DNA from: a virus
Taxonomy: Duplodnaviria; Heunggongvirae; Uroviricota; Caudoviricetes
Virus record (IMG/VR): IMGVR_UViG_3300039368_000086
Span: 1 to 13,305 of that record
Reading direction: 5' to 3' (one strand)
DNA length: 13,305 nt
Below are positions 1-13,305 of this stretch, piece by piece. The notes beneath the pieces were generated by a model. That model did no database searches. It was not told where the DNA came from and saw only the letters and a list, made by a program, of their open reading frames with translations. The translations under genes were made by a program, and so were the position numbers. Within the stretch, counting starts at the first letter, position 1; the number at the start of each line of letters is the position of its first letter.

Positions 1-252
1 CTGATAGAAACAGAAGCCACTGGAGCACCTCAAAAACACCATCATACACTAAATCAGTAAGTTGGCAGCATCACCGGCTGGCAGCAGTCGGCAGGTGCAA
101 GGGCTGAGCTGGCACTGGCGGAGAAACTGGGCCATGCGGTGATTTTTCAGGAGGTGGGCAGTGAATATTGACCCGGCGATAACGATTGATATGGCCCTGA
201 ACACCGGCCTGGCACTTCTTGGTTATTTCTACATCATGTTCTGCAGCGGACG

Positions 253-441
253 ATGGCTGTCACTGTTGTTCAAAAATGGAATAAACGCCGTAAGCAGGAG
301 CAACGCCAGAAGGCAATGGATGCATTTTTCGAAGCCTTCGGGATTGACAGCATGGAACCAGGGGATCCAGCTCGCGTAATTAGCAGAGGTGACGTTGTAA
401 TTCTTGTATACCGGAATGAAGAGAAAAATGAGCGAGATTAA
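253..441 (+). CDS. Hypothetical small basic/acidic phage protein (62 aa; alternative start at 320)
   Basis: ORF with protein-like charged composition; stop overlaps the start of the next gene by 14 nt. Start ambiguous; it competes with the GTG-initiated ORF 161..379 in another frame. Confidence 0.3.
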   Translation: MAVTVVQKWNKRRKQEQRQKAMDAFFEAFGIDSMEPGDPARVISRGDVVILVYRNEEKNERD

Positions 442-1051
442 CTATCAGGTACTGCGTGAAAAGGCAGAGAAAGCAACTAAAGGAAGCTACATCGTAGGGC
501 ATACATCTGTTAACCAACACGGCAATTTAACAGGAGTTTTTGTTTGTCAAAAATGGAAAGGAGAACCCGGTGGCGTGATTGCGGAACGTCATGTTAACTG
601 CCTGATTGAAACAGATGCTCAGGCTTATGCAAACGCTGAGTTCATAGCAGAGGCTAACCCGGCTACCGTGCTGGCACTGCTGGATGAACAGGAAAGAAAC
701 CAGCAATACATCAAACGCCGCGACCAGGAGAACGAGGATATTGCGCTTACGGTTGGGAAGCTGCTCGTTGAGCTTGAAGCAGCAAAATCAAAACTCAACG
801 AGCAGCGCGAGTATTACGAGGGAGTTATCTCTGATGGGTGCAAGCGTATTGCTGAACTGGAAGCGCGGGAAGTTCAATTACCGACTCGCTACGACCTTCG
901 ATATGGACACCCGATAAATGCAGATGAGCGACATGTCATGATACCTAAAGAAAATGGCAGTTGGCTTTACCTGATTGACCTGGAACACGCATTACGCGTC
1001 GCTGGCATTCGCATCAAAGGAGAGGAGCATGGAAATAAAACCAGAGGATGA
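428..1051 (+). CDS. Ead/Ea22-like phage accessory protein (coiled-coil)
   Basis: ATG at 428 gives N-terminus MSEINYQ...; central motif AEFIAEANPATVLALLDEQE and a coiled-coil tail resemble the lambdoid Ead/Ea22-like family (from memory, not searched). The upstream ATG at 404 is less likely. Confidence 0.55.
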   Translation: MSEINYQVLREKAEKATKGSYIVGHTSVNQHGNLTGVFVCQKWKGEPGGVIAERHVNCLIETDAQAYANAEFIAEANPATVLALLDEQERNQQYIKRRDQENEDIALTVGKLLVELEAAKSKLNEQREYYEGVISDGCKRIAELEAREVQLPTRYDLRYGHPINADERHVMIPKENGSWLYLIDLEHALRVAGIRIKGEEHGNKTRG

Positions 1052-1385
1052 GTTAAGCAATATCGTTTTATTTCCGGTAAAAGAGGATGACCCTCGTAAT
1101 CAGGTTAATTTTCTTTATGAGCCATCGGAAAGACCATATTGTCATCACGCCTCTGTCCGGGTTGACGAAAAAGAGCGTCAGGTCCGCTGTAAAATCTGCG
1201 GTGCAGTTGTGGAACCATTTGACTGGATGCTCTCTGTGGCGAAAAGAGAAACCAGACTGGCAGATGATGTAAGGCTCTTGCGTCAGGAGGAGCGGGAAAG
1301 GCGAAAAAATATAGAAAAGCTAATTCAGATTGAGCGTAACGCGAAAGCGCGGATACGCAGGGCGACAAAATCCAGAACTGAATAA
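1029..1385 (+). CDS. Hypothetical phage protein with putative zinc-ribbon (CHH...CKIC) and a basic C-terminal tail
   Basis: ATG at 1029 preceded by AAGGAGAGGAGC ribosome-binding site; overlaps the upstream gene by 23 nt (coupling); C-x-H-H ... C-x2-C motif; Arg/Lys-rich C-terminus. Confidence 0.55.
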   Translation: MEIKPEDELSNIVLFPVKEDDPRNQVNFLYEPSERPYCHHASVRVDEKERQVRCKICGAVVEPFDWMLSVAKRETRLADDVRLLRQEERERRKNIEKLIQIERNAKARIRRATKSRTE

Positions 1386-1478
1386 TTAAATTTAGCTCTG
1401 TTAAAAATTTAATCCTTAACCGGAGGGATTTCTGCACCCTCAGAACATCAGGAGGCCGCCCGAAAGGGCGGTAGTTAA

Positions 1479-1661
1479 ATGCGAAAGTTTAAAATAATTA
1501 TTGAAACGGGAATAGCCGGTGGAGATTTCGAGGATGAATTCGAAGTGGATGATGATGCGACGCCTGATGAAATACATGACGAAGCAAAAGATATTTTCTT
1601 TAACTACTGCAATTACTCATATCACGAAATAAAAGACGAAGAGGAAGAGCAAAATGGCTGA
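1479..1661 (+). CDS. Small highly acidic protein (60 aa, about one third Asp/Glu)
   Basis: ORF follows an AGGAGG (1450-1455) plus GAAA-tetraloop hairpin (1456-1471); 20 of 60 residues acidic by manual count. Confidence 0.5.
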   Translation: MRKFKIIIETGIAGGDFEDEFEVDDDATPDEIHDEAKDIFFNYCNYSYHEIKDEEEEQNG

Positions 1662-1830
1662 TTTTGGTTCAACTAAATACAACGTCAGTTTTGAAGCATG
1701 GCATGAACTGTTAATGGACTATGCAGAGTTACGTGGTGGCAGTGCTGCTGATGCTGAAGCATGGCGTGATGATTATGAAGCAGGAAAAACTCCGGTCGAA
1801 GCATATTGTGATGAGTGGGGCGATGAATGA
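1654..1830 (+). CDS. Small acidic protein (58 aa), not in the supplied ORF track (below length cutoff)
   Basis: ATG at 1654 with GAGGAAG 6 nt upstream; hand translation MADFGSTKYNVSFEAWHELLMDYAELRGGSAADAEAWRDDYEAGKTPVEAYCDEWGDE; 8-nt overlap with the upstream gene and ATGA overlap with the downstream gene. Confidence 0.5.
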   Translation: MADFGSTKYNVSFEAWHELLMDYAELRGGSAADAEAWRDDYEAGKTPVEAYCDEWGDE

Positions 1831-2141
1831 GCGAGATTAATTATCAGGAAGGGCATGAAACGGCAGGGCAGGCAAAACCAGTTGCATGGCGATATCGCTA
1901 CGTGAAAAAAGGCGTTACGGACTTTCAGGAGAATCTGTGGGTTGGTGACTGGAAATATGTACCGACAAAAGAGGATTGCAACGACAGGCCGAACTATGAA
2001 ATTCAGGCCTTATTCGCTGCCCCGCCAGTTCCGGTGACATCAGAAGAACTGGTTAAAGCTGTGCACTTTTATGAACAACTAAAACGCGAAAATCCACCAG
2101 CATCCGGAAACCTGATTACAGATTCCCAGATAAGGCAATGA
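1827..2141 (+). CDS. Hypothetical phage protein (104 aa) sharing the MSEINYQ N-terminus with the Ead/Ea22-like gene
   Basis: ATGA start/stop overlap with the upstream gene; first 21 nt are 20/21 identical to the gene start at 428. Confidence 0.55.
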   Translation: MSEINYQEGHETAGQAKPVAWRYRYVKKGVTDFQENLWVGDWKYVPTKEDCNDRPNYEIQALFAAPPVPVTSEELVKAVHFYEQLKRENPPASGNLITDSQIRQ

Positions 2142-2311
2142 GCTACCTGGCGCAGAACGGGCTGATAAGTATGGGGAATATTTTGCGATGAATATTTAGA
2201 CTAAAGAGTTTGTAACGCTATGTAAGTGATTTTTTCTGGTTTAGATATTTATATGTCCGGCCAAATTGAGGTGTGTTTAAATGTTATTGCACATTGATTG
2301 TAGGGGGAATA

Positions 2312-2491
2312 ATGAAAAACGCATTGCAGTTTTTGTTTGTTGCGTTCTGGTTGTTCGCATCATGTATGCCCATCATCTTCACAGCAAGGTATATGGAAAA
2401 AGTTGATGTTTTGATATTAATGTTTGGACATATAAATGCCCTTTTTTTAGGGGTGTTCATGGCGGTCATGTGCATTGAATACTGGCGGTAA
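2312..2491 (+). CDS. Small hydrophobic (membrane) protein, about 59 aa
   Basis: ATG at 2312 preceded by AGGGGGAA; sequence MKNALQFLFVAFWLFASCMPIIF... is predicted two-TM-like; an alternative GTG start at 2273 exists. Confidence 0.35.
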   Translation: MKNALQFLFVAFWLFASCMPIIFTARYMEKVDVLILMFGHINALFLGVFMAVMCIEYWR

Positions 2492-2750
2492 ATACAGCGA
2501 ACGCCATTGGTTTAGTTGGATATTTACTGTGCCGGACAAAAACGGTTTGCGGGGAAATCTTAGTTAAGTAGAATGACTGCGGGTGCTTGAGGCTATCTGT
2601 CTCAGGCATGAACACTGAAAGGCAGATAGAGAAAAGCCCCAGTTAACATTTCGCGTCCTGCAAGACGCTTAACATTAATCTGAGGCCCAATCTATGTCTC
2701 ACAAATGTAGGTTAGCCTCTTACGTGCCGAAAGGCAAGGGGAAGCAGGCT

Positions 2751-2906
2751 ATGAAGCAGCAAAAGGCGATGTTAATCGCCCTGATCGTCATCTGTTTAAC
2801 CGTCATTGTGACGGCACTGGTAACGAGGAAAGACCTCTGCGAGGTACGAATCCGAACCGGCCAGACGGAGGTCGCTGTCTTCACAGCTTACGAACCTGAG
2901 GAGTAA
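2751..2906 (+). CDS. hokD: Hok/Gef-family membrane toxin (HokD/RelF-like, 51 aa)
   Basis: Translation MKQQKAMLIALIVICLTVIVTALVTRKDLCEVRIRTGQTEVAVFTAYEPEE matches my recollection of HokD/RelF; an in-frame upstream extension (2694) of 70 codons has mok-like length; structured leader upstream and a 3' hairpin at 2914-2936. Confidence 0.85.
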   Translation: MKQQKAMLIALIVICLTVIVTALVTRKDLCEVRIRTGQTEVAVFTAYEPEE

Positions 2907-2975
2907 GAGACCCGGCGGGGGAGTAATCTCCCGCCACCTCTGATGTGCCAGGCATCCTCAACGCACCCGCACTTA

Positions 2976-2995
2976 ACCCGCTTCGGCGGGTTTTT
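2976..2995 (+). terminator. Rho-independent terminator (CCCGC-TTCG-GCGGG + T5)
   Basis: Perfect 5-bp GC stem with TTCG loop followed by TTTTT, seen directly in the sequence downstream of hok. Confidence 0.6.
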
Positions 2996-3007
2996 GCATT
3001 AGTCTGG

Positions 3008-3036
3008 TTGACAAAAATAGAAAAATGCGAAAATAT
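3008..3036 (+). promoter_or_regulatory. Candidate sigma70 promoter for the 3072-4806 cassette (TTGACA -35, 17-nt spacer, weak AAATAT -10)
   Basis: Consensus TTGACA at 3008-3013; the -10 matches only 3/6, so this is tentative. Confidence 0.3.
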
Positions 3037-3071
3037 GTGGTTTACGAATTCTAAAAAAAGCGAAACTTGAA

Positions 3072-3722
3072 ATGAATGAAAATCAGTTAGCTCCTTGTTG
3101 GGAATTTCAACCTTATCTTGCTGAAAACTATGTTCGCCACTTGTTGGCGGAGATCGCTAACGTACTTGAGCAGCTGTACTATCATAAGCACGCATTAGAC
3201 AGCAACTGGTCTGAAGGTGTAAGGGCTTATGATTGGGTCAGAAATCATCTTATTCAAAATGAAGATGCAATTCCTGGCCTTGAGATGATTTCCAAGGGGT
3301 TGGACTATGTAGTTGCTTTAAATAAAGTTCCGCTACAATTTACCAAAGATTGCATTAATAACCCCAAAAAGAAACATCGTCTGCGTCGAAATAAAGTAGA
3401 GTATGAGCAGCTCTCATTGTTTGGTGATGTTGAGGCTGAGCAAGATATTACATGGCGAGTCATAGCTGAGCCTTTTTTATCCGAAGAGGGCGATGGTGAA
3501 TTAGAGTCCACACTGCCTCGTTGGGAGGTAGCTCTTGTTGGATTTAATACTTATGGTGCTCAGATTAGTATAGTTTCTCATCAATCTACAGCATCGATGC
3601 CGCTTATGCCTCTTGATTATAACACACTCCCTGACGAAGCGGAGATTAATAAGGTGCCTCTTCGTCGGCGTACGAAGGATAAAGATTTGGATGTGAGCAG
3701 TGATGGAACATCAGGTGAATAA
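3072..3722 (+). CDS. Hypothetical protein (216 aa), upstream partner of the HTH-peptidase; no family recognised
   Basis: Long ORF in an AT-rich segment, translationally coupled (about 20-nt overlap) to the downstream gene; weak ribosome-binding site. Confidence 0.65.
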   Translation: MNENQLAPCWEFQPYLAENYVRHLLAEIANVLEQLYYHKHALDSNWSEGVRAYDWVRNHLIQNEDAIPGLEMISKGLDYVVALNKVPLQFTKDCINNPKKKHRLRRNKVEYEQLSLFGDVEAEQDITWRVIAEPFLSEEGDGELESTLPRWEVALVGFNTYGAQISIVSHQSTASMPLMPLDYNTLPDEAEINKVPLRRRTKDKDLDVSSDGTSGE

Positions 3723-4806
3723 CTTCACTGAGTATCGGGGTGATAAGCTCAAACTAGCGAGAATGGCTGTTGGGCTTTCTTGTGAAGAGTTAGCCGAAAA
3801 AATTGGCAAGACAAAGCAATTCGTTAGCAAACTGGAGAAGGGGTGCAGGCCATCGGAGCAATGTCTTGAGTTAATATCTTCAGCGCTTATGATTAAGTCC
3901 AGTTTTCTTTTTACTGAACGAAAATACGCTCTGGAAAGTGATGTCTGCCATTTTCGGAGTAAGAAGTCCAGGACTCAAACGCTGACTAATAGTGTATTGG
4001 CCAGGGCTGAGATTCTTAATATTATAATTTCTGCTGTTGAAGGTGAAATCGAATTTCCTGACGTTAACATACCGGAGCACCCAGGGGCTGAATTACTTAC
4101 TCCGAATGATATTGAGCGAGTGGCAGAAGATTGTCGCCGTGCCTGGAATTTAGGTCTTGGCCCTATATCATCAATGGTTAAATTGGCGGAGAGTTTAGGG
4201 GTAATCGTTGCGCATGTTACGGGAGTCGATGATCGTGTTGATGCTTTTACTGTTCACAATAACAGGCCTGTTATCATCAGGAACAATGTTAAAAAAAGCA
4301 TATGTAGATTTCGCTCTGATTTAGGTCATGAATTAGGGCATTTAGTAATGCATGAGGGCATAACGACAGGTGATAAACTTACGGAATCACAAGCCGATCA
4401 CTTTTCGAGCGCCTTATTAGTTCCCAGGTTATCTTTCATTAAAGAATTTCCACGAATACGAGGTAAGCAATTCGACTGGAATGCTCTGGTTGAATTTAAA
4501 CTTAGATGGAAAATCAGCCTTAAAATGTGTATTTATCGAGCCAGCGCATTAGGCTTATTGACCCAGGAACAGGCAAGAACTGGCTATATGCATCTTAATT
4601 CCAGAGGGTATACGAGAGTTGAACCTGGTGATGAACTTTTGCGCCCTGAAGAACCCGGCATGCTGGCCGAGGCGATTGAAATGCTGGATGATGCAACCTG
4701 GCTAAGAATTCTTATGAAAACTGGCTTGAGCCAAGATTTAATTCGTGAGTTGTTCTCCATCAACAGACCTATTACAAATCCAAGAAATATTTTCCAGATT
4801 GTTTGA
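3703..4806 (+). CDS. HTH_XRE DNA-binding domain fused to ImmA/IrrE-family (M78, COG2856) zinc metallopeptidase
   Basis: N-terminal helix-turn-helix signature (LKLARMAVGLSCEELAEKIGKTKQFVSKLEKG); HEXXH zinc-binding motif in DLGHELGHLVMHEG; 367 aa. Confidence 0.85.
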   Translation: MEHQVNNFTEYRGDKLKLARMAVGLSCEELAEKIGKTKQFVSKLEKGCRPSEQCLELISSALMIKSSFLFTERKYALESDVCHFRSKKSRTQTLTNSVLARAEILNIIISAVEGEIEFPDVNIPEHPGAELLTPNDIERVAEDCRRAWNLGLGPISSMVKLAESLGVIVAHVTGVDDRVDAFTVHNNRPVIIRNNVKKSICRFRSDLGHELGHLVMHEGITTGDKLTESQADHFSSALLVPRLSFIKEFPRIRGKQFDWNALVEFKLRWKISLKMCIYRASALGLLTQEQARTGYMHLNSRGYTRVEPGDELLRPEEPGMLAEAIEMLDDATWLRILMKTGLSQDLIRELFSINRPITNPRNIFQIV

Positions 4807-4810
4807 GTAT

Positions 4811-4831
4811 ACCCGCTTCGGCGGGTTTTTT
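4811..4831 (+). terminator. Rho-independent terminator, near-identical copy of the one at 2976-2995
   Basis: ACCCGCTTCGGCGGGTTTTTT; a 20-nt core is shared with the terminator after hok. Confidence 0.65.
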
Positions 4832-4850
4832 GTTTTTATTTTCAACGTGT

Positions 4851-4880
4851 TTGAAGTTTTGGACGGTGCCAGAATAGAAT
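4851..4880 (+). promoter_or_regulatory. Candidate sigma70 promoter (TTGAAG -35, 18-nt spacer, TAGAAT -10) upstream of 4916
   Basis: Motifs read directly; followed by strong ribosome-binding site GGGAGAAGAGGG and ATG 4916. Confidence 0.35.
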
Positions 4881-4915
4881 CAAAAATACTTAAGTAGCGC
4901 GCAGGGAGAAGAGGG

Positions 4916-5137
4916 ATGGACCCCGAACAGGGGGAGTGCTATTTATCTGGAAGGATTCTGTTGATGAAAATCGAAGAATTACGTGAAATTTTTAGTGAAG
5001 ATGGCCTCTATGCTGTGCGCGTTGAGAATGGGGGTATTACCTACACAGCGTTAATTCCTGATGATCATGTAGTGTTATCTGTTGAGGCATTCATTGAATA
5101 CTTGGAAAGACTCGGTTTCAAGGTAGTTCGGGAATAA
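4916..5137 (+). CDS. Hypothetical small protein (73 aa; alternative start 4966)
   Basis: Strong ribosome-binding site before 4916; no recognisable motif. Confidence 0.45.
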   Translation: MDPEQGECYLSGRILLMKIEELREIFSEDGLYAVRVENGGITYTALIPDDHVVLSVEAFIEYLERLGFKVVRE

Positions 5138-5196
5138 GTTATAATACGTGAGCCAGCCTGAACAACTGGCAACCTGCAGCGCCATTGGAGATGACA

Positions 5197-5469
5197 ATGG
5201 CGCATAATTTCAAATTTCGCAATTCTGATTCTGCCTTTGCCAGCAGGCACGGGTGGCGTTCTCACGCATTCAAATATGACTGGTATCAGCACGATCCCTG
5301 TACTGAAGAACAGGCCGAATGGCTGATTCATAACTACCGCAGACGTGGATATGAGTTTAGGAAAGCCCTCACCCTCGATTATCGTCACTGGATAATCTAC
5401 GTCAGACTCCCTTATTCCGAACGCCCACCGCGTCCGTCCCGCACATTCCAGCAACGCATCTGGAGGTAA
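5197..5469 (+). CDS. Hypothetical phage protein (90 aa)
   Basis: GGAG 6 nt upstream of ATG 5197; stop TAA is embedded in the ribosome-binding site of the DUF968 gene (coupling). Sits where Qin-type prophages carry the small gene preceding ydfU. Confidence 0.5.
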   Translation: MAHNFKFRNSDSAFASRHGWRSHAFKYDWYQHDPCTEEQAEWLIHNYRRRGYEFRKALTLDYRHWIIYVRLPYSERPPRPSRTFQQRIWR

Positions 5470-5470
5470 C

Positions 5471-6517
5471 GTGCGGGTATTACTTCGACCTGTTCTGGTA
5501 CCGGAACTCGGGCTGGTGATCGTTAAGCCGGGCCGTGAATCCATGCCGGTATTCCACAATACCCGGGTACTGGTGGAGCCGGAACCGAAAAGCATGCGTA
5601 ATCTGCCGTCCGGGGTCGTTCCTGCCGTTCGCCAGCCGCTGGCGGAGGATAAATCATTACTGCCATTTTTCAGCGACGAACGAGTGATTCGTGCTGCTGG
5701 TGGCGCTGGCGCATTGTCTGATTGGTTACTGCGCCATGTTAAATCCTGCCAGTGGCCACACGGCGATTATCACCACAGTGAAACCGTCATTCACCGTTAT
5801 GGTACCGGCGCAATGGTGTTGTGCTGGCACTGCGACAACCAGCTGCGCGACCAGACCTCCGAATCACTCGGGCAACTTGCTCACCAAAACCTGTCTGCAT
5901 GGATGATTGACGTCATACGCCATGCAATGAATGGCTCGCAGGAACGGGAATTATCGCTGGCTGAATTATCCTGGTGGGCGGTCCGCAATCAGGTGGCGGA
6001 CGCGCTACCGGAAGCGGTATTACGTCGTTCGCTGGGGTTGCGTGCGGAAAAAATCCGCTCAATGTACCGTGAAAGCGACATCGTACCGGGAGAGCAGACC
6101 GCCACCAGCATACTGAAGCAGCGCACAAAAAATCTTGCGCCGCTGCCTCACGCCCACCAGCAAAACCCGCCACAGGAAGAGACGGTGGTCAGCATTGCCG
6201 TTGATCCTGAGTCTCCGGAATCTTTCATGAAACGACCTAAACGTCGCCGCTGGGTTAACGAGAAATACACACGCTGGGTGAAGACACAGCCGTGTGCGTG
6301 TTGTGGTAAGCCAGCCGACGATCCCCATCACCTGATTGGTCATGGTCAGGGCGGAATGGGGACAAAATCTCACGATATTTTCACGCTACCGCTGTGTCGG
6401 GAGCATCACAACGAGCTTCATGCGGATCCTCTGGCGTTCGAAGAAAAGCATGGTTCTCAGGTTGATTTAATTTTTCGTTTTCTTGATCACGCCTTTGCAA
6501 CTGGCGTGCTTGGGTAA
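5471..6517 (+). CDS. DUF968-family (YdfU-like) phage protein with C-terminal HNH/zinc-finger-like motif
   Basis: GTG start with GGAGG ribosome-binding site; C-terminal CACCGK...DPHHLIGHGQGG...CREHHNELH motif; 348 aa, close to the size of Qin prophage YdfU; located just upstream of rusA/Q. Confidence 0.75.
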   Translation: MRVLLRPVLVPELGLVIVKPGRESMPVFHNTRVLVEPEPKSMRNLPSGVVPAVRQPLAEDKSLLPFFSDERVIRAAGGAGALSDWLLRHVKSCQWPHGDYHHSETVIHRYGTGAMVLCWHCDNQLRDQTSESLGQLAHQNLSAWMIDVIRHAMNGSQERELSLAELSWWAVRNQVADALPEAVLRRSLGLRAEKIRSMYRESDIVPGEQTATSILKQRTKNLAPLPHAHQQNPPQEETVVSIAVDPESPESFMKRPKRRRWVNEKYTRWVKTQPCACCGKPADDPHHLIGHGQGGMGTKSHDIFTLPLCREHHNELHADPLAFEEKHGSQVDLIFRFLDHAFATGVLG

Positions 6518-6529
6518 AAGAGGTGACTG

Positions 6530-6889
6530 ATGCTCATAGATTTGGTTTTACCTTACCCGCCGACGGTGAACACTTACTGGCGACGCCGTGGCAGCACATA
6601 TTTTATCTCGGAGGAGGGAAAGCGTTATCGCCGGGCTGTGGCGCTTATTGTTCGCCAGCAGCGGCTGAAATTAAGCCTGTCCGGAAGGCTGGCGATAAAG
6701 GTGATTGCAGAGCCACCGGATAAGCGCCGCCGCGACCTGGACAATATCCTGAAGGCACCACTGGATGCGCTGACGCATGCCGGACTACTTATAGACGACG
6801 AGCAGTTTGATGAAATCAATATTGTGCGCGGTCAGCTCGTTCCTGGTGGGCGGCTGGGGATAAAAATCACAGAACTGGAGTGCGCATGA
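6530..6889 (+). CDS. rusA: Crossover junction endodeoxyribonuclease RusA (Holliday junction resolvase)
   Basis: 119 aa; conserved PDKRRRDLDN and GGRLGIKITE motifs matching the RusA family; canonical position before Q. Confidence 0.9.
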   Translation: MLIDLVLPYPPTVNTYWRRRGSTYFISEEGKRYRRAVALIVRQQRLKLSLSGRLAIKVIAEPPDKRRRDLDNILKAPLDALTHAGLLIDDEQFDEINIVRGQLVPGGRLGIKITELECA

Positions 6890-7575
6890 ATAACCAGTAT
6901 TTACAGTTTGTGCGTGAGCAGCTCATTATCGCCACCGCTGATTTGAGTGGGGCAACAAAAGGTCAGCTTGAAGCCTGGCAGGAGAATGCCATGTTCGATA
7001 CAGGGCGTTACAGGCGTAAAAAAATCCGGTACCGCGATGAAGTGACCGGAAAAATGATAACGCGGGATAATCCACCAATCCCGGGAAAACAATCGCTGGC
7101 GAAGGGGACGTCAATTCCTCTGGTCAGTCAGGTTGCTTTTTCTACATCATCATGGCGGCGGGCTGTTTTGTCTCTTGAAGAACATCATAAAGCCTGGTTG
7201 TTGTGGTGTTACAGCGGAAATACTTGCTGGGAGTATCAGATCGCGATAACGCAGTGGGCATGGACAGAATTTAAGACTCACTCTGGTACCAGGAAAATTG
7301 CAGGGAAGACACAGGAACGCCTGAAAAAATTAATCTGGCTGGCTGCACAGGATGTCAGGAGATGGGTTATAGGACATGATATCTACCAGCAACAGGAGCT
7401 TGCCCGTCTGTGTGGGATTAAGCCTGACAACTGGAGCCACAATTATGTGAGCTACTGGCGTGAAATACTCGACATTTTTATGAACCTCGATACCGAATCT
7501 CTGATTTGCACTGTGAAAAGGAGATCTCAACAAAAAGCGGCATTTTTGCAGCGAGATATTGCAAAAGTCAATTAG
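6886..7575 (+). CDS. Late-gene antitermination protein Q (phage 21/82/Qin-type Q family)
   Basis: ATGA overlap with the rusA stop; 229 aa; immediately followed by a PR'-like promoter and a short-transcript terminator. Family assignment is mainly positional. Confidence 0.7.
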   Translation: MNNQYLQFVREQLIIATADLSGATKGQLEAWQENAMFDTGRYRRKKIRYRDEVTGKMITRDNPPIPGKQSLAKGTSIPLVSQVAFSTSSWRRAVLSLEEHHKAWLLWCYSGNTCWEYQIAITQWAWTEFKTHSGTRKIAGKTQERLKKLIWLAAQDVRRWVIGHDIYQQQELARLCGIKPDNWSHNYVSYWREILDIFMNLDTESLICTVKRRSQQKAAFLQRDIAKVN

Positions 7576-7587
7576 ATAGCATATATT
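7559..7587 (+). promoter_or_regulatory. Candidate late promoter PR' (TTGCAA -35, 17-nt spacer, TATATT -10) overlapping the 3' end of Q
   Basis: Motifs read directly; predicted start near 7594 would give a roughly 55-nt RNA ending at tR'. Confidence 0.35.
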
Positions 7588-7623
7588 TTATGTAAATGTG
7601 ATATATTGCTGTAAAGTGTATAA

Positions 7624-7648
7624 ACCCGCTCAAATGTGCGGGTTTTTT
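7624..7648 (+). terminator. tR'-like rho-independent terminator (CCCGC ... GCGGG + T6)
   Basis: 5-bp GC stem, 8-nt loop, TTTTTT tract; position right after Q. Confidence 0.6.
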
Positions 7649-7721
7649 GCTTAACTCTGTGGACCTTTTTATCTGTAGTTGTAATATATGGATATTGTTA
7701 CAATTTAGGTCGGTGAGCTTA

Positions 7722-8486
7722 ATGGAAGAACAGCACGGTAATTACTTTATAAAACGAATTCAGTTGATTGGAAGAGGGGCATTTGGCTTTGTTGAACACG
7801 TTAAGGTTTACAACCTCAATAAAGGTGAATGCGGGGATTATGCTAGAAAGGTTTTAGCACCCGAAAAACCAGAGCTTTTGGCGCAAATAGAGCAGTTTAG
7901 AAGGCGTTTTAAAAGGGAGGTTGTGTATCAATCACATTGCGTACATAGCAATATTGTTCCTATTTATTTGTGCGATTTGTTTGTTGAGAATCCATGGTTC
8001 ATTATGGATAAAGCAGAATGTGATCTTGAGCACGAAATAACGAACAACCTTCTTACAACAGATCAAAAAATTTCAATAGTGAAAATGGTATTAGATGGTG
8101 TAGCTTACATCCATGCCAAAGGCTATTTACACAGAGATATAAAACCCTTTAATGTTTTGCGATTTAGCGACGGAACATACAAGGTGTCTGATTTTGGTCT
8201 GGTAAAAGATACGAATCCCGAAGGGGATACCACTAAATTGACCGAGATCGGTACCCGTATGGGAAGTACAAGATATATGGCTCCCGAGATTTTATATAAT
8301 GCAGAGTATTCAGTTAAGACTGATGTTTATGCTGTGGGACGGTTAATTGAAGACTTAAATTTAGATGATAAAAAAATAAAGCCTATCATAGCTAAGTGCA
8401 CAAGGATGGATAAAGATGATAGATATCAGACAATAGATGATGTGGCGTTTGATTTTGCGCATTCTTTTTTAAGGAGTGAGTCATGA
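7722..8486 (+). CDS. Hanks-type (eukaryotic-like) Ser/Thr protein kinase, minimal kinase domain only (254 aa)
   Basis: Full motif set: glycine loop IGRGAFGFV, ARK lysine, catalytic loop HRDIKPFN, DFG (VSDFGLVK), APE (YMAPE), DVYAVG; GGTGAG ribosome-binding site before ATG 7722. Confidence 0.85.
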   Translation: MEEQHGNYFIKRIQLIGRGAFGFVEHVKVYNLNKGECGDYARKVLAPEKPELLAQIEQFRRRFKREVVYQSHCVHSNIVPIYLCDLFVENPWFIMDKAECDLEHEITNNLLTTDQKISIVKMVLDGVAYIHAKGYLHRDIKPFNVLRFSDGTYKVSDFGLVKDTNPEGDTTKLTEIGTRMGSTRYMAPEILYNAEYSVKTDVYAVGRLIEDLNLDDKKIKPIIAKCTRMDKDDRYQTIDDVAFDFAHSFLRSES

Positions 8487-9226
8487 TTCAGCTGATAGCG
8501 ACTTCATCATTCTCGTATCCAAAAGAACCAGGTAGGGTCAACGAAGATTCATTGCTTCCTCCAAAAATTGTAGGAGACGGCATCTTATTTGCCGTAGCTG
8601 ATGGTGTAGGTTCATACTCTGGTGCCAGTTATGCTTCATCCATGGCAATCGCTGAACTTTCAGCATTGACAAGTTTATCTTTTGATGCAGTTCCGAATGT
8701 ATTTGCTGAAGTTAAGCGAAAAGTTATGTCGTTAGCTGAAGTTAATGATGAGTTCGATAAAGCTGCTACTACACTTACCTTTTGTTATGTTTGTGATAGC
8801 GGAATTATTATTGGTCATATTGGTGATTGTCGCTTGTATTGCATTGGAGAAAAGAAAGCATATCAATTGACGAAGGACGATACCAGACATCAGATGTTAA
8901 TTGATCAGAATATTTTTAAACCCAGAGATTTGAAGAATAAACCGGGAAAAAATATCTTAACGACTGCCATAGCCTCAAATGTTGATATGGAATACGACTG
9001 TGATTTTATCCCGTGGAAAGATTTGCCTGGTATTAACGGGTTGTATCATCTGTGTATCATGTCTGATGGAGTTCATAACGTTTGGGAAAAACGCCCCAGA
9101 TTTACATCAAATACTATGAGTAATAGTCAGAAGTTTTCTAATGGTATTTTGCGTCGTATAGAGAGAGCCGGACCTGATGATGACTTTTCTTTAGTAAGTA
9201 TAATGGTGCGTGTGACGTCAGATTAG
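8483..9226 (+). CDS. PP2C-family (PPM) Ser/Thr protein phosphatase (247 aa)
   Basis: Motifs RVNEDS, FAVADGVGS, IGDCRLY, MSDGVHN, GPDDDFSLV; AAGGAG ribosome-binding site; ATGA overlap with the kinase stop (translational coupling). Confidence 0.8.
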   Translation: MIQLIATSSFSYPKEPGRVNEDSLLPPKIVGDGILFAVADGVGSYSGASYASSMAIAELSALTSLSFDAVPNVFAEVKRKVMSLAEVNDEFDKAATTLTFCYVCDSGIIIGHIGDCRLYCIGEKKAYQLTKDDTRHQMLIDQNIFKPRDLKNKPGKNILTTAIASNVDMEYDCDFIPWKDLPGINGLYHLCIMSDGVHNVWEKRPRFTSNTMSNSQKFSNGILRRIERAGPDDDFSLVSIMVRVTSD

Positions 9227-9295
9227 TTGTATAAACCCAGTAGGGAATGCTAATTTCCCATACTACAGAGTAAAGAAAAACTTAATTTTAATGTG

Positions 9296-9322
9296 AAAAG
9301 GCTGCTATCAGGCGGCCTTTTT
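9296..9322 (+). terminator. Rho-independent terminator after the kinase/phosphatase cassette
   Basis: AAAAGGCTGC-TATCAG-GCGGCCTTTTT: 6-bp stem with one G-U pair, flanked by A4 and T5. Confidence 0.5.
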
Positions 9323-9336
9323 ATGTCTGAAAAGCT

Positions 9337-9663
9337 GTGCAGTACGTTAAACACGCTTGTGGTTGTGAATGCCGACTGCGGCGGTATTTTGGCGTGACAG
9401 CGCAGGTGCCGTATACCGATGTCTGGACGCATAAACCGGTGCAGTTCTATCCCGGGAAACATCCGTGCGAAAAACCGGCAGAAATGCTGCAGCAGATAAT
9501 CAGCGCAAGCAGTCGTCCGGGAGACCTGGTTGCAGATTTTTTTATGGGCTCAGGTTCAACGGTAAAAGCGGCACTGGCGCTCGGGCGTCGTGCGATTGGC
9601 GTTGAACTGGAGACCGGACGTTTTGAGCAGACAGTCAGGGAAGTTCAGGATTTAATCGTTTGA
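9337..9663 (+). pseudogene. C-terminal fragment of an N6-adenine/N4-cytosine DNA methyltransferase (5'-truncated)
   Basis: Contains HPCEKP (H-P-x-x-K-P) and the FFMGSGST AdoMet-binding motif, but no DPPY catalytic motif and only a GTG start abutting a terminator. Confidence 0.55.
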
Positions 9664-9712
9664 AACGGATGAGATTGCAGAATTAATTACGCACCATTAT
9701 TATTCTGCTTCC

Positions 9713-9788
9713 GGCCCTTTAGCTCAGTGGTGAGAGCGAGCGACTCATAATCGCCAGGTCGCTGGTTCAAATCCAGCAAGGGCCACCA
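9713..9788 (+). tRNA. ileZ: tRNA-Ile2 (anticodon CAU, lysidine type; ileZ-like)
   Basis: Hand-folded cloverleaf: acceptor GGCCCTT/AAGGGCC, D-stem GCTC/GAGC, anticodon loop CTCATAA, T-arm GCTGG-TTCAAAT-CCAGC, 3' ACCA; close to E. coli ileX. Confidence 0.8.
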
Positions 9789-9795
9789 TCACATA

Positions 9796-9872
9796 CCGCC
9801 ATTAGCTCATCAGGAAAGAGCGCCAGCCTTCGAAGCTGGTTGCGCGGAGTTCGGGTCCCCGAAGGCGGTCCA
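9796..9872 (+). tRNA. argN: tRNA-Arg-like (anticodon UCG as read; argN-like) with one mismatch each in acceptor and T stems
   Basis: Anticodon stem CCAGC/GCTGG with loop CTTCGAA; T-loop TTCGGGT; 3' TCCA; imperfect stems make functionality uncertain. Confidence 0.55.
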
Positions 9873-9885
9873 TTATCTGTATCCT

Positions 9886-9962
9886 GCGTTGTTAGCTCAG
9901 CCGGACAGAGCAATTGCCTTCTAAGCAATCGGTCACTGGTTCGAATCCAGTACAACGCGCCA
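9886..9962 (+). tRNA. argO: tRNA-Arg (anticodon UCU, reads AGA; argO/argU-like)
   Basis: Acceptor GCGTTGT/ACAACGC, anticodon loop CTTCTAA, T-arm ACTGG-TTCGAAT-CCAGT, 3' GCCA. Confidence 0.85.
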
Positions 9963-9977
9963 CACTTATTTTCCCTG

Positions 9978-10001
9978 GCTCGCTTTTGCGGGCTTTTTTT
10001 T
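9978..10001 (+). terminator. Rho-independent terminator ending the tRNA cluster (GCTCGC-TTTT-GCGGGC + T8)
   Basis: Read directly from the sequence. Confidence 0.55.
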
Positions 10002-10196
10002 AAATGTCTCACAATTCAGGCGGTTGACTGTTGTCTGGTTTGCGGGGAGTTTGTTAAAAGAAACTGGCATGGTGAATCCCCCTGTGCGGAGGGGCAATCA
10101 GCGAGTAGGTATATGGGATAATCGCGGATTCAGGTGTTGGTACTGAATTCACCGGGAGGCACCCGGCACCATGCAATGGCACATAGCGCCACTCTC

Positions 10197-10226
10197 CAGC
10201 CCCTCTCCGGAGGGGCTGTTTATATT
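10197..10226 (+). terminator. Rho-independent terminator-like hairpin (CAGCCCCTC-TCCG-GAGGGGCTG followed by T-rich tract)
   Basis: 9-bp perfect stem; the T-tract is interrupted (TTTATATTGATTTT). Confidence 0.45.
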
Positions 10227-10249
10227 GATTTTGTCAGATGTGAGTAAAC

Positions 10250-10283
10250 TCCTTATGGACTTTGTTGTTTTAGTCCATAAGGA
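10250..10283. repeat. Perfect 12-bp inverted repeat (TCCTTATGGACT ... AGTCCATAAGGA) with 10-nt loop
   Basis: Every base pair checked by hand; no U-tract on either strand; overlaps the stop codon of the minus-strand ORF. Confidence 0.7.
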
Positions 10284-10588
10284 CATATTTGCAGAGTGCA
10301 ACGGTTATTAAAGCATTCATTCAATACGTTATCTGTATTTGTAGGGCATTCCTGGCTGTTTTTGATTAAATTCCAGAATGTTTTATTGAATGGTACTACG
10401 TTGTAAATGGTTACAGGTAGCACTTTGTTATTGAGCATGATACCTGTGTGAGTCAGTGTAAATATACTTTCAGGAGGTAAGAAAGCATCCGATTGATACC
10501 AGATTATTAATTTTACTTTACTCCATATGACTGAAAAAGATATTCCGCATGATGGCTGGATAACTGTATCAATCACAATCCACTTCAT
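10253..10588 (-). CDS. Hypothetical Cys/Trp-rich protein (111 aa) in an AT-rich segment; only minus-strand gene candidate in the window
   Basis: ORF with AGGAA 7 nt upstream of its ATG on the minus strand; AT-rich (foreign-looking) context; no recognised motif; could be spurious. Confidence 0.3.
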
Positions 10589-10848
10589 TTAGTTTCCTTG
10601 TTTATGCCTTGCTGGTGATGTTCTGAAAAGTATAAATGATATTTTTGAATGTAAACCATAGAGCAGAATTATTTTTATGATGTTGTTTATTGTTTATTTA
10701 AATGCAGGGTGGTTTATATCTCGTCTTGTAGTTTATCCATGCATATCTGCTTGATAATCAAGTTTTTATTTAAGGTATGGTTTTGTGTTTTTTCTGTATT
10801 ACATGTCAGGTATTTTAAAGAATTATTTTTCAGATGGTGGAAAGAACC

Positions 10849-11037
10849 ATGGCATTTAAACACTATGATGTTGTCAGGGCGGCGGCGCCGTCAGATCTTG
10901 CGGAAAAGCTGACACATAAACTGAAAGAGGGCTGGCAGCCGTTTGGTAGTCCGGTGGCCATAACCCCTTATACCCTGATGCAGGCGATTGCAGCAGAAGG
11001 TGATGTGGTGGTCAGTGGTGCAACTGAGCCGGAGTGA
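10849..11037 (+). CDS. Small conserved-looking late-region protein (62 aa; alternative start 10834)
   Basis: ORF with GGTGG/GAAAGA upstream; located just before the lysis cassette, where lambdoid prophages often carry a small conserved gene. Confidence 0.45.
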   Translation: MAFKHYDVVRAAAPSDLAEKLTHKLKEGWQPFGSPVAITPYTLMQAIAAEGDVVVSGATEPE

Positions 11038-11280
11038 TACTACGTCATCGTACTGGCCCGGCATTCCAGGCCATAAAAGACGGTCTGGCAGTGGGACTAA
11101 ATGCACTGACGCTGACGGATATTACCAAAAATGCAACGTATGGCGTTGAGATAGAAAGTCTGGTGCTGGAGATAAATGCACCGGCATCATCATAAAAAGT
11201 GAGCCAGTCAAATGGAAGGTATCGTTAAACTCACCGGTAGTGTCAGTGGGTCGTCTGAGACGCCTGCATGAGTTATCAGA

Positions 11281-11310
11281 GCCATCAGTACTTAACTGGT
11301 GGCTTTTTTA
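11281..11310 (+). terminator. Terminator-like hairpin upstream of the holin (GCCATCAG-TACTTAA-CTGGTGGC + TTTTTTATT)
   Basis: 8-bp stem with one G-U pair followed by a T-tract. Confidence 0.4.
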
Positions 11311-11344
11311 TTGTTGTCAGCTTCCGGATAACGGGAGACGGGGT

Positions 11345-11560
11345 ATGTACCAGATGGAAAAAATCACAACAGGTGTGTCATACACCACGTCAGCGGTGGG
11401 AACGGGCTACTGGTTCCTGCAGTTGCTGGACAGGGTTTCCCCGTCTCAGTGGGCGGCAATAGGCGTGCTGGGGAGTCTGCTGTTTGGGCTGCTGACATAT
11501 CTGACTAACCTGTATTTCAAAATCAAAGAGGACCGGCGTAAGGCGGCGCGGGGAGAGTAA
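11345..11560 (+). CDS. Phage-21-type class II holin (pinholin, S21/EssD family) with dual-start motif (MYQM)
   Basis: Translation ...[51 protein letters not shown] matches S21/EssD as I recall them; GGGAGACGGGG ribosome-binding site. Confidence 0.85.
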
Positions 11561-11564
11561 AGTG

Positions 11565-12455
11565 ATGAATAAAAAATATGAACTGGTTGTTAAGGGGATA
11601 AATAATTACGGGGATAAGGTTACTGTTACTGTGAAGCCGGAAGGTGACGGGCAAGCGTCGCTGTTGTTGCCAGATGTGGCGATTAGTCTTGACCGTACTG
11701 AAGGTGCCACGCTGGAGTTTTACGAAGCTGAGGCGAAAAAGCAGGCGAAGCAGTTTTTCATGGATGTTGCTGCCGGGTTATGTGAAGGGGATGGTCCGTT
11801 GCCGGAAAAGCGCCCCGTAATTTTAGAGGCGCAGGATGTGTTGATAACCTACAAAGGAAAGCTACCGGGAAGAATTACTTGTTCTCTGAAGATGCCGCCG
11901 TCAACACTGCGGTCAGAAAAAGATGATGTTGAATCACGTATTGAAAAACTGGAGAGCTACGTCGTTGAGCTGAATAAGAAATGGTCGATATTGGTGCCTT
12001 CTGGCGATGAAAAGCAGTTTGCTGCGTTTGACGATTATTGTCGGAAAGTGATGAGCAGAAATCTCGCAGAGTGTTTCAGTATTCATAATGATAATTTCAG
12101 TGACCCGGAATGGGAGTGTAACCGGCCATCCTTTGTTGTATCCGGTGATGCTGGGAAAATAACCATCTCAGAAAATGGGAAAGTAACACCTCCATCGCAC
12201 CAGCACAGTGAGGAGCTCATTGAATTTGCCATTGATTACCTGAAGAACAATAAAAAGCAGGGGCTGATGAAGCGCGTTGGCCGTTGCATGGGATATCTGC
12301 AGGTAGCTGCTGAGATTGAAGCGCTGGCCAGTGGTGCTGATAAGGATGCAATTGTGCGGGAGGCTCTTCTTCGTGATTTTAATACTCCACCCTTTAAAAA
12401 AGTGCCGGCTTACTGGCTTCATCCGGGGCTGACTTATCTTAAAGTGCGTATTTAG
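11565..12455 (+). CDS. Hypothetical protein (296 aa) inserted between holin and endolysin; no family recognised
   Basis: ATG at 11565 lies 7 nt after GGGAGAG, which overlaps the holin stop; long ORF with protein-like composition; no signal peptide or TM segment seen. Confidence 0.7.
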   Translation: MNKKYELVVKGINNYGDKVTVTVKPEGDGQASLLLPDVAISLDRTEGATLEFYEAEAKKQAKQFFMDVAAGLCEGDGPLPEKRPVILEAQDVLITYKGKLPGRITCSLKMPPSTLRSEKDDVESRIEKLESYVVELNKKWSILVPSGDEKQFAAFDDYCRKVMSRNLAECFSIHNDNFSDPEWECNRPSFVVSGDAGKITISENGKVTPPSHQHSEELIEFAIDYLKNNKKQGLMKRVGRCMGYLQVAAEIEALASGADKDAIVREALLRDFNTPPFKKVPAYWLHPGLTYLKVRI

Positions 12456-12491
12456 TGGGCCAGGGACAGCGGCTGAATATTTAATATATCC

Positions 12492-13025
12492 ATGAACACC
12501 AAAATCAAATACGGCCTGTCGGCTGCCGTTCTGGCGCTGATTGCCGCTGGTGCGCCTGCGCCTGACATTCTCGACCAGTTTCTGGATGAAAAGGAAGGCA
12601 AGCACACCACAGCATACCGTGATGGTGCGGGTATCTGGACCATCTGCCGAGGTGCCATCATGGTGGATGGTAAGCCTGTGATTCCTGGCATGAAGCTGTC
12701 GAAGGAAAAATGCGACTGGGTTAACACTATCGAACGGGATAAGGCGCTGGCGTGGGTGGAGAAAAACATCAGAGTGCCACTGACCGAACCCCAGAAAGCG
12801 GGGATCGCGTCATTCTGTCCGTACAACATTGGTCCCGGTAAGTGTTTCCCGTCGACGTTTTACAGACGAATTAATGCTGGTGATCGAAAAGGTGCCTGCG
12901 AAGCGATTCGCTGGTGGATTAAGGACGGTGGCAGAGACTGCCGTATTCGTTCAAACAACTGTTACGGTCAAGTATCCCGTCGTGACCAGGAGAGCGCGCT
13001 GGCGTGCTGGGGTATCGACAGATAA
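12492..13025 (+). CDS. SAR-endolysin (phage-21 R-type lysozyme, T4-lysozyme/GH24 fold)
   Basis: N-terminal signal-arrest-release-like segment GLSAAVLALIAAGAPAP; catalytic-region pattern E...D...T (EKEGKHTTAYRDGAGIWTICRG) similar to R21/P1 Lyz. Confidence 0.8.
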   Translation: MNTKIKYGLSAAVLALIAAGAPAPDILDQFLDEKEGKHTTAYRDGAGIWTICRGAIMVDGKPVIPGMKLSKEKCDWVNTIERDKALAWVEKNIRVPLTEPQKAGIASFCPYNIGPGKCFPSTFYRRINAGDRKGACEAIRWWIKDGGRDCRIRSNNCYGQVSRRDQESALACWGIDR

Positions 13026-13181
13026 GCAGAATATTTTGCTGAAAAATGAGGAATGGCCACGCGGGCGGATAACACGAAATCCTGCGAACTGGCGAAACGT
13101 AAGTGAATAAAAGTAAAAACCCCGTTTGTTGGCACCAAGCGAGGTTTTGTGTTTCTGACCTTGAGTAAGGCAAGGGAGAAC

Positions 13182-13305
13182 ATGGCGAAGTATAAACGAA
13201 TTCTGTTGAGGTTGACTATGAAAAATGTGAACCGCCCCGGGTTTCCTGGAGAGTATTTTATCTGTGAACTCAGGCTGCCAGATCATCGTTTCCGATGGAA
13301 GCATA
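13182..13305 (+). CDS. 5' part of an unknown ORF running off the window end (MAKYKRILLRLTMKNVNRPGFPGEYF...)
   Basis: AAGGGAGA ribosome-binding site 4 nt upstream of ATG 13182; open to the window end; not Rz-like. Confidence 0.35.
   Translation, partial: MAKYKRILLRLTMKNVNRPGFPGEYFICELRLPDHRFRWKH

Follow-up and report, generated by a model that had tools for sequence, protein, structure and literature searches.

The stretch of DNA analysed here (IMG/VR record IMGVR_UViG_3300039368_000086, positions 1 to 13,305; its full 13,305 nucleotides are referred to as the window) belongs to a virus of the Caudoviricetes and represents the nin-to-lysis part of a lambdoid, Shiga toxin (Stx) phage-like Escherichia coli prophage in which the stx genes are absent. 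Its gene order comprises the RmrT/RmrA pair, DUF968, RusA, the antiterminator gene Q, a pR'-like promoter, the terminator tR', a kinase gene, a PP2C phosphatase gene, a terminator, a methyltransferase remnant, three tRNAs, AT-rich cargo and the lysis genes. Positions 2562-10221 share 99.96% identity with the chromosome of E. coli strain ML35. In this study, we focus on the kinase and the phosphatase. Together they form an intact two-gene operon (7722-9226), in which two same-strand open reading frames (ORFs) are translationally coupled by an ATGA stop/start overlap at 8483-8486, and which lies as AT-rich cargo between tR' and a terminator of its own (Table 1). An earlier description made from the letters alone (hereafter the sequence-only reading) had pointed out the two overlapping genes, their AT-richness, their moron-like position right after Q and tR' and the separate terminator, and all of these features were recovered in our analysis. 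The GC content of the cassette is 0.374 compared to 0.522 in each flank. Three features of a moron, namely placement between backbone genes, deviant GC content and an own terminator, were found.

Table 1 Features of the kinase-phosphatase cassette and its surroundings in the window. The table indicates the feature, its position, the strand and the supporting evidence or a remark.
Feature	Position	Strand	Evidence or remark
DUF968	5471-6517		
RusA	6530-6889		
Antiterminator Q gene, upstream backbone	6880-7575	+	Pfam Phage_antiter_Q, E=5.6e-84; named Q in ML35
pR'-like late promoter TTGCAA-17-TATATT	7559-7587	+	Consensus scan; lies between Q and tR' as in the lambdoid layout; predicted function
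tR' intrinsic terminator, left edge of the cassette	7622-7651 (hairpin 7622-7645 plus T-run)	+	Terminator scan; fold -15.5 kcal/mol, z=-4.1
Candidate extended -10 element TGTTACAAT, weak	7696-7704	+	Read from sequence
Shine-Dalgarno-like GGTGAG of the kinase gene	7712-7717	+	First position of cross-backbone conservation; GTCGGTGAG...ATG kept in 5 of 5 aligned upstream regions
Kinase gene: 254-aa bare Hanks-type Ser/Thr kinase, RD type, 765 bp	7722-8486	+	Pkinase, E=1.5e-33
Shine-Dalgarno AAGGAG of the PP2C gene, within the kinase 3' end	8471-8476	+	6 nt 5' of ATG 8483
Phosphatase gene: 247-aa single-domain PP2C/PPM, 744 bp, ATGA-coupled to the kinase	8483-9226	+	PP2C_2, E=3.9e-14
Intrinsic terminator at the cassette end, GC-rich hairpin plus T-run	9291-9326	+	Fold -20.4 kcal/mol, z=-5.2
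Junction of an independent 1,182-bp deletion	9374-9377	.	Loss of 763 bp from the 5' end of the methyltransferase gene, together with a small ORF
3' remnant of an N6/N4 DNA methyltransferase gene, pseudogene	9377-9663	+	N6_N4_Mtase profile positions 134-219 of 221 only
tRNA trio: CAT anticodon (ileZ-like), Arg-TCG, Arg-TCT	9713-9962	+	ARAGORN; downstream backbone landmark

The sequence-only reading had assumed that the kinase gene starts near 7649. Although its frame is open from 7647, the start codon is the ATG at 7722, as indicated by the RefSeq annotation and by the fact that all homologues begin with ME..GNY. The kinase scored 116.7 bits with the Pkinase profile (PF00069; cut-off 31.7), and every Hanks motif is invariant across 31 homologues with 43-74% identity, including G17/G19/G22, K43, E66, H137-R138-D139-x-K141-x-x-N144, D157-F158-G159, E189, D201 and R234. 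In this order, they represent GxGxxG, the VAIK Lys, the alpha-C Glu, HRDxKxxN, DFG, APE, the subdomain IX Asp and the subdomain XI Arg. T174 in the activation loop is nearly invariant in the same alignment. This is in line with the earlier description of a bare Hanks-type kinase with complete catalytic motifs, and the enzyme is intact and looks active, judging from its sequence. The HRDIKPFN loop suggests Ser/Thr-type specificity, since loops of this kind are classed as Ser/Thr-type among kinases in general. Structure prediction, which the sequence-only reading had proposed as a check for each protein, gave the expected folds. An AlphaFold2 (AF2) model built from the homologue alignment (pLDDT, the predicted score of the local distance difference test, 89.2; predicted template modelling score, pTM, 0.86) consists of a compact canonical bilobal kinase domain only, in which the activation loop (163-177) is disordered. 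Its Foldseek neighbours are generic kinases such as PknB and FGFR2, with template modelling (TM) scores of 0.7-0.8 and 18-22% identity.

The phosphatase scored 53.1 bits with the PP2C_2 profile (PF13672; cut-off 24), and the metal-binding Asp motifs of the PP2C family (D22, D40-G41, G114-D115, D195-G196 and D233-D234) are invariant in 31 sequences, which agrees with the earlier assignment. The AF2 model (pLDDT 93.3, pTM 0.91) displays the PPM beta-sandwich fold. The closest structures are the bacterial PPMs 6ihw, PstP 1txo, Stp1 5f1m and PppA 6jkv (TM ~0.75-0.8) as well as tPphA; of these, PstP, Stp1, PppA and tPphA are PPM phosphatases that partner Hanks kinases. Like the kinase, the phosphatase is intact and looks active. 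Between the two E. coli alleles of the cassette (95.6% DNA identity), the ratio of non-synonymous to synonymous polymorphism (pN/pS) was 0.04 in the kinase gene and 0.13 in the phosphatase gene, which indicates that selection maintains both genes.

To describe the distribution of the pair, 74 family loci were collected by exact-protein look-ups and a scan of IMG/VR and clustered at 90% identity into 35 lineages. A scan of genome contigs with the kinase alignment was swamped by generic kinases matching the HRD/DFG patterns and yielded one true relative (L016); the IMG/VR loci were used for statistics. The PP2C gene follows directly 3' on the same strand in 72 of the 74 loci, the two exceptions being a truncated and a fragmented contig. 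The two genes share a 4-nt ATGA or GTGA overlap in at least 25 of the 35 lineages and are separated by gaps of no more than 7 nt in the remainder. None of the 74 loci contains a second kinase, and a Pfam census of 129 flanking ORFs from 33 family loci revealed no conserved third gene. In 34 of 34 representatives, the pair was poorer in GC than the sequence around it (mean difference 10.8 points, flank values ~38-58%), and a clear intrinsic terminator was present within 200 nt downstream at 22 of the 34 loci. More than 200 homologues of the same length exist for each protein across the Gammaproteobacteria. The kinase-PP2C pair is a large gammaproteobacterial family that moves as a self-contained unit among the cargo slots of temperate phages.

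These slots are diverse. Of the two main habitats recognised in the neighbour census, one is the lysis and packaging region (lysozyme 10, Rz 5, holin 3, Q 3, and terminases), the other the immunity region (HTH_3 5, S24 4, YdaS 4, CI 3, Cro 3), and integrase and Bro genes were also found as neighbours. In Yersinia, the pair follows the antiterminator in three different lambdoid prophages. It also lies after Q in the UV-induced Cronobacter phage phiES15, in other Cronobacter prophages and in Raoultella prophages. Enterobacter prophages and the isolated phage Flotzy carry it between spanin and terminase, and a Photobacterium Mu-like prophage contains it in the structural region. In a Pseudomonas locus the pair adjoins P2-like tail genes on the opposite strand, and in a Haemophilus prophage it is part of the early-left arm near the integrase (RecT-SSB-[pair]-Bro-integrase). 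The only clearly non-phage context found was a small variable island of Xanthomonas arboricola (L013 7001-10646), where the pair is convergent with a gene for a 654-aa NACHT/STAND NTPase and located near a SymE toxin gene.

Within E. coli, the cassette was detected in 50 of 5,426 complete genomes (~1%), always on the chromosome and in two alleles; carriers include the enterotoxigenic (ETEC) strain E24377A and the avian pathogenic (APEC) strain BEN2908. In one E. coli genome (H50; NZ_CM185152.1 2860735-2864036) the cassette is broken by insertions of the IS3 and IS1 families of insertion sequences (IS), with 68% of the query covered in three pieces. A megablast search of the cassette against the INPHARED phages returned zero matches; relatives exist at the protein level only. 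At E<=1e-10, tblastn with the kinase retrieved 26 of 50,697 phage records. In a tblastn search of phage records, the PP2C matched only phiES15, Flotzy and weak Listeria or metagenomic sequences. Both genes are correctly named in RefSeq and both families are already part of PHROGs, the kinase as phrog_2361 'serine-threonine kinase' and the phosphatase as phrog_5650 'unknown function'. The sequence-only reading had allowed for the pair to be a widespread and already characterised one. It is indeed annotated and widespread, yet functionally uncharacterised.

The kinase aligns to positions 6-273 of the 415 of phrog_2361 and the PP2C to positions 273-520 of the 565 of phrog_5650. As these profiles are longer than either protein, some of the phage members may be kinase-PP2C fusions or carry extra domains. 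Furthermore, two IMG/VR loci (L155 921-2956 and L156 1554-3565) contain distant relatives with a longer kinase (438-443 aa, with an extra domain) 5' of the PP2C gene, which may represent a sensor-bearing sister group of the bare pair.

Regarding expression of the cassette, the sequence-only reading had noted a possible extended -10 element. The sequence TGTTACAAT is present, but E24377A, which has the other E. coli allele, shows TC in place of its TG, and no such element precedes the Raoultella and Yersinia copies. Similarity across these backbones starts only at GTCGGTGAG, ~15 nt 5' of the ATG, and a consensus promoter scan detected zero sites between tR' and the kinase ATG. Given the TG/TC change and the start of conservation ~15 nt before the ATG, an own promoter of the cassette is possible but unsupported. 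tR' is kept in the E24377A and Cronobacter backbones. The terminator at the cassette end was overlooked by a simple pattern scan, probably because A-T pairs of the hairpin use up part of the T-run. Q-modified RNA polymerase would read through both tR' and the cassette terminator; hence the pair must be strongly expressed upon induction, as stx is in Stx phages. Such Q-driven readthrough during induction follows from the established regulation of lambdoid late genes.

In related phages, the interval between Q and the methylase gene is either empty or filled by the kinase/PP2C cassette or by a different one. Phage Stx2a_1447 (L004 1083-2646, minus strand) carries another cassette, whose two genes of 540 and 1,032 nt encode hypothetical proteins, between Q and a small ORF followed by the methylase gene. 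This different cassette on the opposite strand indicates that the Q-methylase interval is a variable cargo slot.

The sequence-only reading had further proposed that insertion of the cassette destroyed the adjacent methyltransferase gene. The 5'-truncated remnant is real, and it is labelled 'incomplete, missing N-terminus' in RefSeq; the cassette as the cause of the truncation did not stand. In ETEC E24377A (L002), the same cassette follows Q and is itself followed by a 198-nt ORF and an intact methyltransferase gene of 1,050 nt. Window positions 6801-9374 correspond to L002 4222-6793 and positions 9377-9872 to L002 7976-8465, which leaves a clean gap at L002 6794-7975 and places the junction at ~9375 of the window, ~50 nt past the cassette terminator. 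An identical junction GAATGCCGACTGCGGCGGTATTT occurs in phage PhiR49_2 (L003 ~4031-4034), where an unrelated Q is directly followed by the remnant and the kinase cassette is absent. Among the IMG/VR loci, 11 of 11 with an E. coli-type cassette had intact-type methyltransferase sequence; overall, the gene is intact at 12 cassette loci other than that of the window. Truncation by cassette insertion is thus ruled out, and the deletion was an independent event. Since the window, ML35 and PhiR49_2 have the junction in common, the deletion allele spreads through recombination, whatever the content of the Q-methylase interval.

Next, we compared the pair with characterised kinase and phosphatase systems. 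The closest of these is the kinase-kinase-phosphatase (KKP) system, PfpC-PfkB-PfkA, a three-gene module found in prophages of the Pf6, P2/P4 and Mu-like types (Guo et al., Nat Commun 2024, PMC11341870). In KKP, the two prophage kinases are jointly toxic through phosphorylation of many essential proteins and the PP2C phosphatase PfpC acts as antitoxin; inhibition of PfpC by Gp59 of phage T4 releases kinase toxicity and blocks phage production (PMC11341870). Toxicity requires the CSD domain of PfkA and the FHA domain of PfkB, and the module also governs Pf lysogeny through MvaU (PMC11341870). Both KKP and the pair are Gram-negative prophage cargo in which one or more Hanks-type Ser/Thr kinases and a PF13672 PP2C are combined in one operon, and both occur in P2-like or Mu-like prophages and occasionally in other mobile islands, so that the pair shares the prophage location of KKP. 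The architecture is different. KKP consists of PP2C, kinase and kinase in this order, with 900-1300 bp each, whereas the pair is one kinase followed by one PP2C with an ATGA overlap; and where PfkA has a CSD, PfkB an FHA domain and PfpC an additional C-terminal part, the pair is made up of a bare 254-aa kinase and a bare 247-aa PP2C. Membership in KKP was therefore rejected based on gene number and order, the lack of CSD/FHA fusions and gene length (765 and 744 bp), all judged by the architectural description, and the search filters used for KKP would themselves leave out a two-gene pair.

Other systems are less similar. The sequence-only reading had named Stk of phage 933W and staphylococcal Stk2 as analogues; they are not relatives. 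Both are eukaryotic-like kinases that are quiescent until phage infection and then block the phage, and Stk is an HK97-exclusion kinase encoded by an Stx prophage (PMC11341870). No Stx or 933W phage was among the 26 tblastn records at E<=1e-10, and a Stk-type exclusion kinase was rejected on this basis. Moreover, Stk and Stk2 are single-gene, phosphatase-free systems, in contrast to the pair, and Stk was reported as a tyrosine kinase, whereas the kinase described here has the Ser/Thr-type loop. The top PADLOC matches of the kinase were the defence kinases mad6 (6e-40), PD-T4-6 (1e-34) and Stk2 (1e-27). The match to Stk2 covers only the kinase core (model positions 160-348 of 500). For PD-T4-6, a single-gene Ser/Thr kinase from the E. 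coli pangenome that PADLOC lists as anti-phage, kinase residues 7-208 align to model positions 11-201 of 327. Neither PD-T4-6 nor mad6, the MADS kinase, has a cognate PP2C, unlike the kinase of the pair, which is obligately accompanied by one.

Housekeeping systems such as PknB/PstP, PrkC/PrpC, Stk1/Stp1 and PpkA/PppA resemble the pair in that a cognate kinase and a PPM lie side by side, and they include the nearest structural matches. In these systems the phosphatase resets the activation loop of the kinase. However, housekeeping kinases are membrane-anchored, sensor-bearing (PASTA, FHA partners) products of core genes of the chromosome, whereas the pair consists of bare catalytic domains and is mobile, AT-rich phage cargo. 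A PP2C and a Ser/Thr kinase are also combined in the TerY-P triad, reportedly described by Gao and co-workers in 2020 as a defence-associated operon with a TerY/vWA protein as third component. Membership in TerY-P was rejected, as no vWA was found in the window or among the 25 commonest of the 73 neighbour Pfam families (129 ORFs, 33 loci), and TerY-P models are absent among the PADLOC matches listed. The systems validated with DefensePredictor include HipA-like kinases and metallophosphatases and no Hanks kinase/PP2C pair.

Based on the analogy with KKP, we tentatively interpret the pair as a minimal KKP-like phospho-switch of the toxin/antitoxin type, which would most likely be directed against phages; this is the reading we prefer, although we hold it with some reserve. 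The kinase would autophosphorylate its activation loop, presumably at T174, and could then phosphorylate many host and phage proteins. The co-translated PP2C would continuously reverse the phosphorylation of the kinase and its substrates and in this way leave uninfected lysogens unharmed. Should the phosphatase be inhibited, titrated or outlived, be it by an infecting phage or under some other stress, the kinase might run free, and growth as well as phage replication would come to a halt. Such abortive infection or exclusion could shield the lysogen population and hence the prophage. Basal expression might stem from leakage through tR' and/or a weak local promoter, and Q-modified RNA polymerase would transcribe the cassette heavily during prophage induction. 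The sequence-only reading had already suggested that the phosphatase is an antitoxin-like brake on a kinase of abortive infection or exclusion, an idea for which the prophage KKP module is a direct experimental precedent (PMC11341870). The pair travels in many phage slots as autonomous cargo rich in AT and is found in immunity regions and next to a NACHT gene, which fits this interpretation; it is also supported by the integrity of the motifs, purifying selection, obligate pairing, the defence-kinase profiles of PADLOC and the presence of a Rosmer pair in the same window (see below).

Several observations weigh against a defensive phospho-switch. The kinase-first gene order is the reverse of that in KKP, and neither the Pfam search nor the AF2 model revealed any domain beyond Pkinase, so that the kinase is without a sensor or adaptor while KKP toxicity needs CSD and FHA. 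The PADLOC models are longer (292-659 positions), and the kinase matches them only over residues ~7-208, the generic kinase core; the phosphatase had no significant PADLOC match (best E=0.0035). In addition, the upstream alignment indicates that no conserved promoter moves with the cassette, so that any expression in the lysogen is putative. Within the closest clade, the pair is always located right behind an antiterminator of one of three families (PF06323, PF06530 and PF03589), which implies Q-dependent transcription. Finally, nothing functional was found in the literature on the two-gene version, on lambdoid phages together with PP2C, on the RefSeq accessions or on the phiES15 genes.

It is less probable, though far from negligible, that the pair is a late module that benefits the phage and does not protect the host. 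Driven by pR' and Q in the lytic cycle of the phage itself, its phosphorylation could serve host takeover, counter-defence or the tuning of lysis and packaging, with the PP2C limiting or time-gating the kinase instead of serving as its antitoxin; a reversible burst of phosphorylation would then disarm host defences or rival prophages, or time lysis and packaging, and the position next to antiterminator and lysis genes would be functional rather than incidental, which we regard as rather unlikely. The cassette starts right after tR' in the window, E24377A, Cronobacter, Raoultella, Yersinia and phiES15, despite the three antiterminator families; its conservation across backbones begins at the Shine-Dalgarno sequence, with no promoter travelling along; its commonest neighbours are lysis and packaging genes in the same orientation; and two viable isolated phages have retained it. 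The lack of a conserved promoter and the position of the closest clade right behind the antiterminator keep late, Q-driven expression, the alternative offered in the sequence-only reading, alive as an explanation and even strengthen it somewhat. However, the family also occupies sites to which Q-dependent late expression cannot apply, namely immunity regions, an early-left arm, a position by P2-like tail genes on the opposite strand and the non-phage NACHT island. Toxin/antitoxin logic more typically involves an antagonist that is co-translated in strict 1:1 coupling, and the Q-lysis and lysis-terminase slots are generic moron hot spots, the first of which contains a different cassette in Stx2a_1447.

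Still lower is the likelihood we assign to a prophage-regulatory switch, which would set the phosphorylation of a nucleoid or silencing protein of the host (H-NS/StpA-like) or of a phage regulator and thereby control induction or cross-talk between prophages, perhaps with defence as a second function. Such a KKP-like role in lysogeny control, improbable as it seems on present evidence, would not exclude the other explanations. KKP has the same dual role, acting through MvaU (PMC11341870). AT-richness, a typical property of H-NS target DNA, is seen in the cassette and in several cargo regions nearby, and E. coli carriers are probably polylysogens as a rule. On the other hand, evidence points to no specific substrate, the family is found in contexts without obvious co-resident phages such as the Xanthomonas island, and the nucleic-acid-binding CSD domain of PfkA is absent from the pair. 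That the two genes are decaying or neutral passengers with no current function is very improbable. It might be argued from the pseudogene state of the adjoining methyltransferase in the lineage of the window and from the IS elements inside the cassette of genome H50. However, both ORFs are intact, the catalytic residues are invariant at 40-80% identity, the pN/pS values are low (see above) and ATGA coupling is kept across 35 lineages.

Kinase-based phage defence and prophage control are known from few systems, namely Stk, Stk2, PD-T4-6 and KKP. After KKP, the kind of system described here is unsurprising; yet it is simple, common and, as a system, absent from defence catalogues. The most fitting description of the pair is that of a minimal variant among the kinase-phosphatase modules of prophages, as its family would be a minimal form with a single bare kinase and a single bare phosphatase, compared to the two adaptor-domain kinases of KKP. 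It has spread to temperate phages of enterobacteria, vibrios, pseudomonads and Pasteurellaceae. If the pair indeed acts in defence, sensing can reside in the catalytic pair, for instance through a phage protein that inhibits the phosphatase, and a small portable system would be added to defence catalogues that now miss it. If it benefits the phage in the late phase, it would represent a new type of host-manipulation module of temperate phages in the slot of the Shiga toxin genes.

Some further features of the prophage were observed outside the cassette. In the nin region, two overlapping genes on the plus strand (3072-3722 and 3700-4806) match the Rosmer defence system, with E=4.6e-25 for RmrT and E=6.2e-105 for RmrA, which combines a helix-turn-helix (HTH) domain with an M78 peptidase. 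Apart from the kinase cassette, at least one recognised defence system is hence present in the prophage. Just 5' of this pair, a Hok-family type I toxin is encoded at 2751-2906 (plus strand, within the ORF 2694-2906), which is named hokD in the identical ML35 sequence. Downstream of the cassette, the tRNA trio corresponds to that annotated as ileZ-argN-argO in Stx2 phages. ARAGORN assigned the tRNA at 9713-9788 to Met (CAT), and its homologue in RefSeq and Stx-phage records is a tRNA-Ile (ileZ) with a lysidine-modified CAT anticodon. Directly after these tRNAs follows a very AT-rich stretch (10200-10950, GC 0.29-0.37), which is the position of stxAB in Stx phages. Similarity to ML35 stops within this stretch, at 10221. 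The stretch includes an ORF for 111 aa on the minus strand (10253-10588) with an end-to-end match to phrog_4407 (E=5.7e-73, unknown function) and zero Pfam or PADLOC matches. Lastly, a DUF1327 protein of 297 aa is encoded at 11562-12455 (plus strand) between a holin-like ORF and the lysozyme gene; it matches phrog_1085 (E=2e-188, unknown function) and is a composite of several shorter PHROG families.

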